Shown here piece by piece: positions 39,878 to 42,467 of a stretch of DNA of 64,000 bases. Source of the DNA: Myxococcota bacterium. GTDB lineage: Bacteria; Myxococcota; UBA727; JAHDBA01. The stretch spans positions 10,027-74,026 of the forward strand of contig JAHDBA010000003.1 of assembly GCA_020630615.1 (NCBI GenBank), written 5' to 3'. Position 1 is the stretch's first letter, and every line of letters begins with the position of its first letter. Position numbers and translations under genes: made by a program. The notes under the pieces were generated by a model. The model did not search any database. It saw nothing but the letters and a program-made list of their open reading frames with translations, and was not told the origin of the DNA.

Positions 39878-40267
39878 CTATTTTTTCGCAAGGCGCTTTA
39901 GTTGATGGCGTAGCTCACTGACAATATTCGGGTCCTTCTCAACCAACTCGCGGACATTTGCACGCATTGTTTCCCCGGCCTCACCGGATGTAATTCCCTG
40001 AAACCGGTGTTCCAGAACGAGGTCGACAAATACACCGCTCATTTCACTGTCTGACGCTTGTTCCATATCGACTCGAGACGCCAATTCGGCTACTGCTGCC
40101 TCAAAACCTTGCCTGGAGTTTTCATCGGGATCAACGGTTGAGAGCTTCTCTACCGCACCAACCTCTCGCACACCCAGGTCGAATGATTTCTTGCTCTTGG
40201 GAGACTTGGAAGGCCCTTGCGCCTTGAGTTGTCGCGCGTTCGTGTTCTTGGTTGAAATCTTAACCAT
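39878..40267 (-). CDS. Hypothetical protein (129 aa), last gene of the minus-strand module
   Basis: An ATG start. The N-terminus is Lys-rich and the rest is acidic and helical. No recognisable family. Confidence 0.35.
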   Translation of the reverse strand: MVKISTKNTNARQLKAQGPSKSPKSKKSFDLGVREVGAVEKLSTVDPDENSRQGFEAAVAELASRVDMEQASDSEMSGVFVDLVLEHRFQGITSGEAGETMRANVRELVEKDPNIVSELRHQLKRLAKK

Positions 40268-40335
40268 GGTTGTGTGTACCCGTATTCCAAATCCATATCT
40301 GGGAAATATGTTTGTCTAAAATCGACGATTCTTTT

Positions 40336-40815
40336 CTAGTGCGATGAGAGAGCGTTTACTTCTTGGGCTTCTCGAAGCGCATCCAGTAAAGGTTTGACAT
40401 AGCTATAATCTTTAGCGTCACTACGACTTGCCAGTTGCGCGAGCTCCGCTTGCACATCACTAGAAAGGCCAAGCTGAATCTCGCATTCGAGTCGATGAAC
40501 ACTTGCGCCAACTTCATCGGGGCGTAGTTTCTCTACTTCTGAGAAATGCTTTCTTGCGAGACGGAAATTCTTCTTCGCAAATGCCACATGTCCTAGGAAC
40601 TCCTTGGGAAGGCTCAGCTCAGGAAAAATGGCACCAACACCCTGAAATATCGTGTCCGCTTCGTCAAATCGTCCCATTTGCAGAGAGAGCATTCCACCCT
40701 CGAGCAAGAGTCCGAGCTCCTCCTCCGGCAGTTCTAAAAGGCCTACACGATGTGGAATATCTACACAGTTGTCTCCAGTCACATTCTCCCCCTGAAAAAT
40801 CAACGCATTGACCAA
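40336..40815 (-). CDS. TPR protein resembling class II type III-secretion chaperones (LcrH/SycD/YscG-like)
   Basis: At 159 aa, the N-terminal segment LLELPEEELGLLLEGGMLSLQMGRFDEADTIFQGV parallels the LcrH segment LNGVSEDTLEQLYSLAFNQYQSGKYEDAHKVFQAL. Three TPR-like helix pairs. A TTG start. Confidence 0.45.
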   Translation of the reverse strand: MVNALIFQGENVTGDNCVDIPHRVGLLELPEEELGLLLEGGMLSLQMGRFDEADTIFQGVGAIFPELSLPKEFLGHVAFAKKNFRLARKHFSEVEKLRPDEVGASVHRLECEIQLGLSSDVQAELAQLASRSDAKDYSYVKPLLDALREAQEVNALSSH

Positions 40816-40841
40816 AAGCCCAGGCTTCCTGGGCGAAAAAA

Positions 40842-41363
40842 TTAACGAACGTTTTGGATACTCGACTTTGCAGTGTCATGCTTGGTCTTCATCACGTTGG
40901 ACAGTGTTGTGAAACGTCTGTTCTCATCTTGCATGGTCTGTTGAAGCTCCAAGTACTGCAAATTAAAAGCTGCGCCCATTTCTTGTACTTTACTCATACG
41001 ATCAACCATATCTTGCTGACCATTGGGAAGCCCGCCACCACTGGCTTGCCCATTGATATAATCGGGCCCTGATGCACCAAAGCTCGCAGGATTACTCGCA
41101 CTAAATTGGGCGCCACCTTGGACTCCAACACTACGCCCTAAACCCTGTGCTGCGCCATTAACGGCCGCAGATATTACTGCAGAACCGGGTATCACCGGGG
41201 CTGCAACACTTAATCCAGCCGAGACTGCTTGACCTGCTCCCGAAATACCTCTACGAATGTGCGAAGAGAAGCTATTGTTAGCAGCCCGACGAACAGTCGT
41301 TGTCGATGTATTTAAGTTCATTGAAACTCCGCGGTTACCACCCAGCTGATTGACGTCTACCAT
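40842..41363 (-). CDS. Gly/Ala/Ser-rich, Cys-free protein whose C-terminal helix resembles T3SS needle (SctF) subunits
   Basis: At 173 aa, the N-terminal roughly 110 aa are low-complexity G/A/S. The C-terminus LSNVMKTKHDTAKSSIQNVR* compares with the PrgI/MxiH C-terminus QSNTVKV[FI]KD[IV]DAAIIQNFR*. A GGAGGA ribosome-binding site. Confidence 0.4.
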   Translation of the reverse strand: MVDVNQLGGNRGVSMNLNTSTTTVRRAANNSFSSHIRRGISGAGQAVSAGLSVAAPVIPGSAVISAAVNGAAQGLGRSVGVQGGAQFSASNPASFGASGPDYINGQASGGGLPNGQQDMVDRMSKVQEMGAAFNLQYLELQQTMQDENRRFTTLSNVMKTKHDTAKSSIQNVR

Positions 41364-41473
41364 AGCTTCCTCCGTTAAAAACCATTCTAGATTTCCTTAC
41401 GAGATTAGTATCGGACAACCCACACAAAGGTTGTGCTTGGATCTATGAAAGGAATAAATCTAAGTGACTGTAT

Positions 41474-41752
41474 TTATGCACTTTCTTTAATTTTGCGAAG
41501 TTCCGAAATAAGAATTTTAAGCTCCTTGTAACTCGCTAGTGCGAGATTGGCACGTCGTTTCGCCTTCAAATCCTTCGTCTCATCATGAAGTTTTTGAAGA
41601 TCCACTATACGTTCATCCAGAACACTTAAAGGGATCTCCCTATCAAGGAAGGCACTCAACATTGGGAATGCATCTGAAGACTCACCTTCCAACATGTTAC
41701 GAGTCTTTGTTTGAAGTGATTGGATTTTGTCGGATATCTTAAATTCTTCCAT
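41474..41752 (-). CDS. Small (92 aa) coiled-coil protein, translationally coupled to the upstream membrane protein
   Basis: An ATG with a GAGGT ribosome-binding site that lies inside the end of the upstream gene. Predicted helical hairpin. The listed ORF extends further through an alternative start. Confidence 0.4.
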   Translation of the reverse strand: MEEFKISDKIQSLQTKTRNMLEGESSDAFPMLSAFLDREIPLSVLDERIVDLQKLHDETKDLKAKRRANLALASYKELKILISELRKIKESA

Positions 41753-41759
41753 ACATACC

Positions 41760-42467
41760 TCATCTTGAAACGAATCTTGAGAACAGGTTAAGGCTTGCGA
41801 GCACCAAGAGTAAAGACGACACGACAATACAACCAAGCGACAACGCTTGAAAAGAGCACCGCACAATCGCATATTTTTGGAGTAGCATAAAGCCTAACAC
41901 ACTCATGAAGTAGATTGTGCTCAAACAAAAAGGTCCTGCTGCAGTACTTCGATCGAAGCTTTCCACTGCGGAATGTCCCTGTCCCTTGAGCAGGGCCCTT
42001 CGCATGCCCCCAAAGATCGACTTCAGTAATTTGAGGTGACAATACGCAAAAATCAATATGTCTGTTGGGATTTCACTGGCAGATAGGTTATTGGTGCCAC
42101 CTTGAGCCTCGATTCTCTGTCCGATGGTTAAGAGAAAAGAGCCGCCAAGAACAAAGGTTGATACCAGAGACAACACTGCAGGCACGCTATTTGAGCGCAA
42201 AGTTACTGAACAACGCTCAATTGCGATATTGATCACCACAATTAAGTTGTTTAATGTGATGTGTCCCGCACCTTGTACTTTAGCTTTCTGCTTTCCCTTT
42301 GTGTGTATTGCAAGTGCCTCCGGCACTCCTTTAGCGTACTCGAGATCACCCGGCAGCGGCTCATCGATCTGTCGTGCTGCTATTGCCCCCTTGACCGAGC
42401 TCTTTGCGTGCAGAGCCAGATTCGGTTGTTGACTTGTTAGGATTGTTTTCTCGTCATCCATATACAA
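41760..42467 (-). CDS. Membrane protein with a roughly 100-aa cytoplasmic N-terminus and three C-terminal transmembrane helices
   Basis: Three hydrophobic helices and a TTG start. My base count and the ORF-track coordinates differ by 1 nt at the start. Confidence 0.4.
   Translation of the reverse strand: MYMDDEKTILTSQQPNLALHAKSSVKGAIAARQIDEPLPGDLEYAKGVPEALAIHTKGKQKAKVQGAGHITLNNLIVVINIAIERCSVTLRSNSVPAVLSLVSTFVLGGSFLLTIGQRIEAQGGTNNLSASEIPTDILIFAYCHLKLLKSIFGGMRRALLKGQGHSAVESFDRSTAAGPFCLSTIYFMSVLGFMLLQKYAIVRCSFQALSLGCIVVSSLLLVLASLNLFSRFVSR

Follow-up and report, generated by a model that had tools for sequence, protein, structure and literature searches.

Why should genes that resemble a needle subunit and its chaperones lie among housekeeping genes, apart from any secretion apparatus? 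The question was raised by five co-directional minus-strand genes, here called X1 to X5, in a stretch of 64,000 nucleotides (nt) from a Myxococcota bacterium (contig JAHDBA010000003.1 of assembly GCA_020630615.1, forward-strand positions 10,027 to 74,026), which is referred to as the window. A preliminary description of this DNA, made from the sequence alone, had taken them for an orphan unit similar to the sctE-sctF-sctG genes of type III secretion systems (T3SSs), and the five open reading frames (ORFs) that it listed were all found again with the same coordinates and lengths (Table 1). The comparative analysis reported here points the same way. The module is probably a T3SS needle-type subunit, X3, with its chaperones, the core of the machine being encoded elsewhere in the genome. 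X3 is treated below as a putative exported needle-like subunit and X4, a tetratricopeptide repeat (TPR) protein, as its putative T3SS chaperone; the best-supported reading of X2 and X5 is that they are accessory or co-chaperone proteins.

About 20 independent Myxococcota genomes share the genes X2, X3, X4 and X5 as a block with one and the same gene order. A scan of genomes with the peptide pattern SNVMK[TV]KH returned 61 loci (individual loci are denoted by L numbers), mostly in Myxococcota metagenome-assembled genomes (MAGs), the cultured carriers being Anaeromyxobacter oryzae, A. oryzisoli, A. terrae and A. soli. Neither Myxococcaceae nor A. dehalogenans was returned by this pattern, which is nearly invariant across the family, and the result is not proof of absence. 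Neighbour families were counted by iterated hidden Markov model (HMM) searches over the scan loci. The X2 family was found in 20-21 loci, always directly upstream of X3, and the X4 family occupied the place immediately behind X3 in 23 loci, including three with T3SS core genes. The X5 family, positioned after X4, was present in 18 loci and in a divergent form in 3. The HMMs derived from these loci recovered the window proteins X2 (5e-8), X3 (2e-32), X4 (3e-23) and X5 (3e-20); a homologue search with X4 alone returned X4 itself only. Conservation of X2-X5 as a block is more than chance. It bears directly on the suspicion that the ORFs are chance or mis-called and their resemblance to a secretion module a reading artefact. 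X1 has no homologue, and other start codons had to be assigned to X1 and X4, which would fit such an artefact, but X2-X5 belong to conserved families of hundreds to thousands of members with a fixed gene order. The suspicion is thereby refuted for these four genes, and we assign it a negligible probability. Copies of X3 also occur alone: the MAG CAYXVF01 carries two X3 paralogues on different contigs (L023 and L043), one in a full X2-X3-X4-X5 block and one solitary, and L006 holds another solitary full-length X3.

The T3SS genes in the loci were located by tblastn with annotated proteins of the Yersinia pCD plasmid, and selected loci were annotated with Pfam and NCBIfam. Three architectures were distinguished: X3 beside the T3SS core (type A), the block beside the core (type B) and a detached block (type C). 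Type A comprises 28 Anaeromyxobacter-type loci in which no more than about 10-20 nt separate X3 from a downstream SctI-like gene of about 115 amino acids (aa); SctJ comes next wherever the contig is long enough to show it (26 loci), and the longer loci (for example L042, L080 and L082) run on through SctQ, FliO, SctR, SctS, SctT, SctU and SctV. In A. oryzae Red232 the X3 homologue, immediately ahead of the sctI-like gene, falls within positions 3,861,661-3,882,056 of NZ_AP025591.1 (reversed). This X3-SctI-SctJ order is the arrangement of prgI-prgJ-prgK and mxiH-mxiI-mxiJ. In type B (L031, L063 and L081), X2-X3-X4 adjoin T3SS core genes. The order in L031 is X2-X3-X4-X5-FliA/WhiG sigma factor-SctI-SctJ-347 aa protein-SctL-SctN-SctO/FliJ-like-280 aa protein-SctQ, with matches for the sigma factor (4.7e-47), T3SS_SctI (0.004), SctJ (8e-35), SctL (6e-31) and SctQ (7e-25) and an SctN that is 56% identical to YscN. 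It reproduces the yscE-F-G-H-I-J-K-L order together with that of yscN-O-P-Q, and this synteny bears out the parallel that had been drawn between the module, read as small helical protein, needle-like protein and TPR protein, and yscE-F-G or pscE-F-G. In L081 and L063 the module lies beside YscJ_FliF, FliH/SctL and T3SS ATPase genes. Type C loci are reduced to different degrees: L004, L008 and L061 contain X2-X5, the sigma factor and the SctI-like gene, followed by unrelated genes, and the window and about a dozen other loci retain X2-X5 alone. Over all scan loci, the FliA-type sigma factor was counted in 7, where it comes behind X5 (at a distance of a few kb in L014-L016), and the SctI-like protein in 33, either after the sigma factor or directly after X3.

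The SctI-like family aligned with the SctI profile at an hhalign probability of 74% (P = 2.8e-5), and its consensus matched Pfam T3SS_basalb_I along the full length (E = 0.04). That X3 might be a paralogue of this Myxococcota protein was considered and ruled out (hhalign P = 0.24); X3 therefore fills the sctF slot next to a distinct sctI. A location of the sctF type, with chaperones and upstream of sctI-sctJ in a T3SS locus, was found in the relatives and not in the window. Because the synteny is strong and repeated, we regard association of the module with T3SSs as highly likely. Comparative genomics also supports the notion of a detached needle-subunit-plus-chaperone unit, its orphan status being a property of the 64-kb window. 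Two further genes in the type B loci deserve mention for their own sake. A FliA/WhiG-family sigma factor is encoded between X5 and the sctI-like gene (L031:11465-12277 and L081:12652-13434), and a 338-347-aa protein is encoded after sctJ (L031:13955-14998 and L081:16884-17900), with faint FliG_C and MgtE_N Pfam matches in L081. The two features recall the flagellum and, according to the literature, are absent from Myxococcota T3SSs.

The window itself contains no T3SS core gene detectable by tblastn with Yersinia and Myxococcota T3SS proteins or by family HMMs applied to six-frame ORFs, and the same searches found no FliA-type sigma factor, SctI-like gene or second X3 copy; the preliminary description had likewise seen no basal-body genes in the 64 kb. 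Core genes were also absent from the available flanks of 18 of the 21 block-type loci, so detachment is the rule in this clade, and no secretin was seen in any locus by tblastn with the Yersinia proteins. The missing core genes argue for a reading in which X3 is a coiled-coil protein, extracytoplasmic or cytoplasmic, whose link to T3SS genes in some lineages is historical and whose module serves another envelope process in this genome; the neighbourhood of envelope housekeeping genes (mreB, the BamB-like gene, tamB, tolQ/exbB and tat) could be cited in its favour. Against it, the X3 of the window has no Sec signal peptide, all four T3SS-linked partners are intact and under conservation, and stepwise intermediates lead from L004, L008 and L061, which keep the sigma-28-type factor and the SctI-like gene, to the full systems of L031 and L081. 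Moreover, the flanking housekeeping genes differ between block loci and hence are not functionally tied to the block. Independence from T3SSs is considered improbable.

X3 begins with a polar Ser/Thr/Asn-rich N-terminus without a signal peptide, which is followed by a conserved stretch (RQxPxTDFG...AAPFVPGGAVLSAA, with the hydrophobic part AAPxVPGGAVxSAA), a Gly/Ser/Ala-rich linker of highly variable length, the middle of the protein being hypervariable, and a near-invariant C-terminal region with the consensus FNLQYLQLQxxMQxENRxFTxLSNVMKTKHDTAKxxIxNVR. In the AlphaFold2 (AF2) model of the window protein the C-terminal helix spans residues 115-172 with predicted local distance difference test (pLDDT) values of 70-89, the linker is disordered and the N-terminal helices are of low confidence; in the A. 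terrae homologue the helix spans residues 86-144 with pLDDT values of 93-96. The Gly-rich protein with a C-terminal helix that had been noticed in the 173-aa translation is thus present in the models, as a Gly-rich linker and a helix of 58-59 residues. A first search found 76 X3 homologues and a broader profile 914, and an exhaustive HMM search yielded 2,386 clusters at 50% identity with E <= 1e-3, or 1,368 with E <= 1e-10. Where named, the members are all "hypothetical protein", apart from a few spurious-looking automatic Joint Genome Institute (JGI) names, distant members looked up within their clusters included, and they have no Pfam domain; the domain family is large enough to merit its own profile.

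The similarity of X3 to needle proteins is confined to its end. Against reference SctF and SctI alignments built from annotated plasmid genes, the last 22-35 residues of X3 aligned end-to-end with the C-terminus of SctF (hhalign P = 1.2e-3 to 1.6e-3), a weak and short match. Its score of 20.4 compares with a mean of 9.7 (standard deviation 1.8, maximum 15.3) for column-shuffled nulls and 8.3 for the reversed profile; the SctI profile gave P = 0.024. By eye, PrgI (...SNTVKVFKDIDAAIIQNFR) and X3 (...SNVMKTKHDTAKSSIQNVR) have SN, K, D and a terminal IQN-R in common. When 145 X3 members were compared with Pfam, the commonest sub-threshold matches were HrpA_pilin (60), SrfA (56) and HrpF (56, C-terminus to C-terminus). 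Two of these three families, HrpA_pilin and HrpF, are related to T3SS pili or filaments, and none reaches its gathering threshold. The T3SS_needle_F family (PF09392) was matched by one of the 145, with E = 0.14.

X4 is a three-repeat TPR protein with Pfam TPR_1/2/19 matches, the family consensus reaching 1e-16 against TPR models, and its 148-159 aa fall within the size of small all-TPR chaperones (about 110-170 aa, three repeats). It was compared with the T3SS chaperone models LcrH/SycD (TIGR02552), CdsG (NF052304), SctY (NF052415) and YscG (PF09477). The best NCBIfam match was CdsG (2.5e-5; 24.5 bits, cut-off 170), followed by LcrH_SycD (2.8e-5; 23.9 bits, cut-off 104.8) and SctY (3.6e-4; 21 bits, cut-off 70), all far below the cut-offs, and Pfam YscG gave E = 0.099. 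All 19 X4 family members matched LcrH_SycD and CdsG, and also generic TPR models. By hhalign, X4 was closest to LcrH (probability 83%, P = 8.5e-6), then to YscY (46%, P = 2e-4) and YscG (P = 0.009); the family consensus matched HrpB1_HrpK at 2.5e-4. Its place beside the putative substrate in a T3SS context is seen in the relatives with core genes. Of the chaperone resemblances first proposed for X4, the one to LcrH/SycD is the closer and the one to YscG the weaker, and neither reaches a curated cut-off.

That X4 is nearer to LcrH/SycD, the chaperone of hydrophobic translocators, than to YscG brings in a different role for X3, that of a non-polymerising T3SS substrate (an effector, tip, adaptor or mini-translocator-like protein) held by an LcrH-class X4 and binding a conserved target through its C-terminal coiled coil. 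The conserved hydrophobic stretch of X3, combined with a C-terminal amphipathic helix, would suit such a protein, as would the marginal homology to SctF. On the other hand, X3 is the first gene of the conserved sctI-sctJ-... operon in all 28 type A loci, a structural slot that is atypical for effectors, and its helix is strongly polar with heptad-like hydrophobic spacing and, judged from the sequence, not membrane-lytic. We consider a non-polymerising substrate rather unlikely, and two later results also bear on it.

Neither X2 nor X5 gave a match in Pfam, NCBIfam or the PDB. X2 had been likened to SctE, and the likeness stands by position, a small gene immediately upstream of the needle-type gene, and not by sequence: the hhalign comparison with a YscE/AscE/Photobacterium SctE profile gave P = 0.07, and X2 does not qualify for the Pfam SctE family PF08988. 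X5 is a 129-aa helical protein at the sctH/yopR position. A separate observation concerns its C-terminal part (...MVExDPxFVxRLQSQLKR; window 39878-40000), which aligned to SctF residues 21-58, a segment that runs from the last part of helix 1 across the PxxP turn into the beginning of helix 2 (hhalign P = 7e-4, score 25.0 against a shuffled-null maximum of 14.5); X3 matches SctF residues 50-84. X5 might be a needle-like paralogue or a mimic.

The sequence around X3 offers evidence of another kind. X3 has a strong Shine-Dalgarno sequence, GGAGGA, and shortly past its stop codon lies a GC-rich hairpin followed by a T-rich tract (Table 1), a putative terminator or attenuator at which a separate X3 transcript would end. 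Of 18 block-type loci, 16 have an equivalent strong hairpin (free energy change -20 to -30 kcal/mol) behind X3, mostly with a T-run; its position is kept and its sequence divergent (for example L001, L004, L008, L011, L014-L017, L020, L023, L028, L029, L031 and L037). Type A loci have no such hairpin, because sctI comes immediately after X3. The conserved hairpin points to differential expression of the subunit gene. Major pilin and flagellin genes typically combine a strong ribosome-binding site with a terminator or attenuator of their own, placed before the accessory genes, and the expression anatomy of X3 fits an abundant structural product, though it is no proof of one. An abundant product is also what the non-polymerising substrate would not lead one to expect. 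A by-eye look for a sigma28-type promoter in the X2-X3 spacer gave no convincing match, and a sigma70 scan found sites no more frequently than in shuffles.

The C-terminal domain of X3, about 50 aa long (window 40842-41000; ...FNLQYLQLQ..MQ.ENR.FT..SNVMKTKHDTAK..I.NIR), is not confined to Myxococcota. It is 65-80% identical across phyla and has no Pfam or NCBIfam model. It also terminates proteins with Sec signal peptides and proteins with larger N-terminal regions (L033, L038, L052, L056, L059, L060, L062, L076 and L079), its hosts outside Myxococcota being MAGs labelled Rokubacteria, Aminicenantes, Eremiobacterota, Gemmatimonadota, Steroidobacteraceae and a candidate phyla radiation (CPR) bacterium. 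Because of these Sec signal peptides, the domain seems to have its role outside the cytoplasm, in keeping with T3SS export of the signal-less Myxococcota versions encoded with T3SS genes. One C-terminal domain joined to different export signals, of T3SS type and Sec type, across phyla is also often seen in toxin and effector domains, a point for the non-polymerising substrate; yet the Sec-type copies showed no immunity-like gene, and no shared neighbour or conserved partner except in one closely related genome group.

Several results weigh against X3 being a needle. The loci of the other phyla contain no T3SS gene within 10 kb, so the domain has no strict need of a T3SS and readings other than a needle stay open, the T3SS-independent one included. 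The AF2 monomers of the window X3 and of a shorter Anaeromyxobacter homologue have no confident helical hairpin, and the Foldseek check that had been proposed, run with the X3 models against the PDB, returned nothing. Profile searches of Pfam, NCBIfam and the PDB gave no significant match to SctF or any other family, and the N-terminal 80 residues resemble neither SctF nor anything else. The C-terminal signal comes only from needles of the Salmonella pathogenicity island 1 (SPI-1)/Mxi type (22 residues, 36% identity, P = 1.2e-3), with P = 0.34 for the Ysc type, and YscF was not among the top matches when hhalign was run against individual Yersinia proteins. X4 is as similar to the generic TPR families PrsT, MamA and PilW as to T3SS chaperones, and X2 and X5 have no detectable Ysc relatives beyond weak hints. 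The absence of core genes and of a secretin, described above, belongs here too. Small needle proteins are helix-turn-helix hairpins of about 70-90 aa with a PxxP-type turn; X3 has 173 aa and its family 140-200 aa. X3 is not filed as a member of the SctF family, since it departs from that family in sequence and size. Of the sctF likeness first ascribed to X3, the slot in relatives and the weak C-terminal match remain, and a canonical SctF it is not, being twice as long and having no N-terminal hairpin likeness and no significant HMM match. The gene slot, the weak terminal similarity, the conservation pattern and the expression anatomy nonetheless lead us to regard a functional needle or filament equivalent as having an even or slightly better chance of being correct.

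From these elements we infer that the genome encodes a T3SS core at another site, that X3 is exported by this T3SS and chaperoned by X4 and X2, and that X3 polymerises. X3 would be made in the cytoplasm, where X4 would stop self-association of its C-terminal helix, probably assisted by X2, X5 or both. The complex would then be delivered to the export gate of the distant T3SS, and X3 would be exported by means of its polar, signal-less N-terminus. Outside the cytoplasm the C-terminal helices would join X3 copies into a rod-, needle- or filament-like structure on an SctI/SctJ base, with the variable Gly-rich linker exposed on the assembled structure. The hairpin behind the gene would provide a separate and presumably more abundant X3 transcript. 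A wider proposal, doubtful when all its parts are taken together, is that the X3 family provides the axial subunit (needle, rod or filament) which has been overlooked in Myxococcota T3SSs, and that the near-invariant C-terminal helix of X3 defines a very large, unannotated class of extracytoplasmic self-assembling domains, the 2,386 clusters mentioned above, with export through the T3SS in Myxococcota and through Sec in several further phyla; X5 might then supply in trans the N-terminal needle-like hairpin that X3 is missing.

Table 1. Genes of the module and hairpins next to them; positions are those of the window.
Feature	Position	Strand	Length or description	Basis
X1	41760-42467	-	235 aa	ORF call
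X2	41474-41752	-	92 aa, from MEEFK	ORF call
X3	40842-41363	-	173 aa	ORF call
X4	40336-40815	-	159 aa	ORF call
X5	39878-40267	-	129 aa	ORF call
Hairpin after X3	40818-40834	-	GCCCAGG-AAG-CCTGGGC then TTTTGG; 7 nt past the X3 stop	terminator scan and sequence
Hairpin after X5	39822-39837		between the convergent X5 and BamB-like genes	terminator scan and sequence

Two of the called starts were revised. For X1 the true start is more likely ATG 42461, 6 nt past a GGAG, giving 233 aa. For X4 it is more likely GTG 40782, which lies behind GGGGGAG, because the resulting 148 aa fit the sizes of the homologues (139-150 aa). The 92-aa start of X2 is correct, since the conserved N-terminal FKIxD motif of the family aligns to it. 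Translational coupling of X1 and X2, which had been asserted, is graded plausible because the X1 stop (TGA 41762-41760) lies 7 nt ahead of the X2 ATG and overlaps a GAGG. X1 is a membrane protein with three predicted helices, as had been stated: a Kyte-Doolittle scan placed a soluble N-terminal part ahead of three hydrophobic segments (residues 94-116, 177-196 and 201-219). No sequence homologue of X1 was found in any related locus; L007, L012, L018, L019, L028 and L037 have, immediately ahead of X2, a gene of the same build (a soluble N-terminus and 2-3 C-terminal transmembrane segments). X1 was dropped as a conserved module member, having positional analogues only; its membership is uncertain, and it is a possible membrane partner.

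The second hairpin of Table 1 is likely a bidirectional terminator that ends the module. The position of the module between mreB and a BamB-like gene on one side and rpsD on the other was borne out by Pfam, which identified TamB, CoaBC, MreB and a BamB-like PQQ_2 propeller on one flank and RpsD, MotA/ExbB, TatC and TatA on the other. Two neighbouring ORFs have no Pfam match. One (44061-44567, plus strand, 168 aa, with an N-terminal hydrophobic segment) directly follows the MotA/ExbB-family gene, the spot where an ExbD/TolR-type partner might be expected; the other (35958-37298, plus strand, 446 aa) is upstream of mreB. Rfam and tRNA scans of the window found two tRNAs only, both distant from the module.

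The module is ordinary in kind, consisting of T3SS accessory genes, and the large unannotated family may fill a gap that has been accepted for more than a decade. Reviews and primary papers up to 2025 describe the Myxococcota system as "needle-less", and how the needle-less T3SS* of predatory myxobacteria works is still a puzzle (PMC10433427, PMC12075869, PMC11509652). X3 with a TPR chaperone in the sctF slot is a concrete candidate for the extracytoplasmic part that has been missing from at least some Myxococcota T3SSs. Its bearing on the M. xanthus T3SS* is unproven, given the species that the SNVMK[TV]KH scan recovered. If X3 is an axial subunit, it would bear on scenarios for the origin of the injectisome from the flagellum. 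Since detached blocks are usual in this clade, locus-based T3SS detectors will overlook them.

Among known systems, the closest in gene order is the Ysc group, where YscE-F-G (PscE-F-G, AscE-F-G) with YscH/YopR, YscI and YscJ correspond to the module and the sctI-sctJ-...-sctL genes of the relatives. The likeness extends to a small helical protein, a subunit with a conserved extreme C-terminus, a TPR protein of about 115-150 aa and a second small helical protein. The subunits differ: the Ysc needle has 80-90 aa, whereas X3 is extended by a further conserved region at its N-terminus and carries a Gly-rich linker where needles have the short PxxP turn, and its last 22-35 residues resemble needles of the SPI-1/Mxi type, not those of the Ysc type. 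Neither X2 nor X5 resembles YscE or YopR significantly, and X4 is nearer to LcrH than to YscG. The relatives, in addition, insert a FliA-type sigma gene before sctI, and the window block lies apart from apparatus genes. With the Hrp pilus subunits HrpA and HrpF, recurrent as sub-threshold Pfam matches, X3 shares conserved termini and a hypervariable middle, the flagellin-type logic of axial proteins that carry an insertion between their terminal helices; it differs in reaching no gathering threshold and in lacking likeness to their N-terminal helix.

Several L031 proteins match PRK-numbered models for T3SS, FliH and sigma-28 proteins, models which we take to be of chlamydial origin. The best model for X4, CdsG, is chlamydial as well, yet the scores are far below the cut-offs, and the comparison is one of family models, the organism being Myxococcota-like. 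The chlamydial CdsE-CdsF-CdsG system nevertheless offers a parallel to the window block, its T3SS genes being scattered over loci among housekeeping genes (PMC3459982 and general knowledge).

The nearest systems by lineage are the non-flagellar T3SSs (NF-T3SSs) or T3SS* of Myxococcota, the phylum of the present loci, which contain sctI, J, Q, R, S, T, U and V (and L and N) with no secretin detected nearby. Abby and Rocha (2012) described the NF-T3SSs of Myxococcales as devoid of SctF, secretin, tip and translocon, held that SctF "should have been found" if present, and placed the Myxococcota systems at the base of the injectisome tree (PMC3459982). LcrH-like TPR chaperones have been reported in the M. 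xanthus T3SS* cluster (PMC10433427). The X3 family may be absent from that experimentally studied system. In contrast to the needle-less Myxococcota T3SSs, in the loci described here a conserved gene with a needle-like C-terminus occupies the sctF slot.

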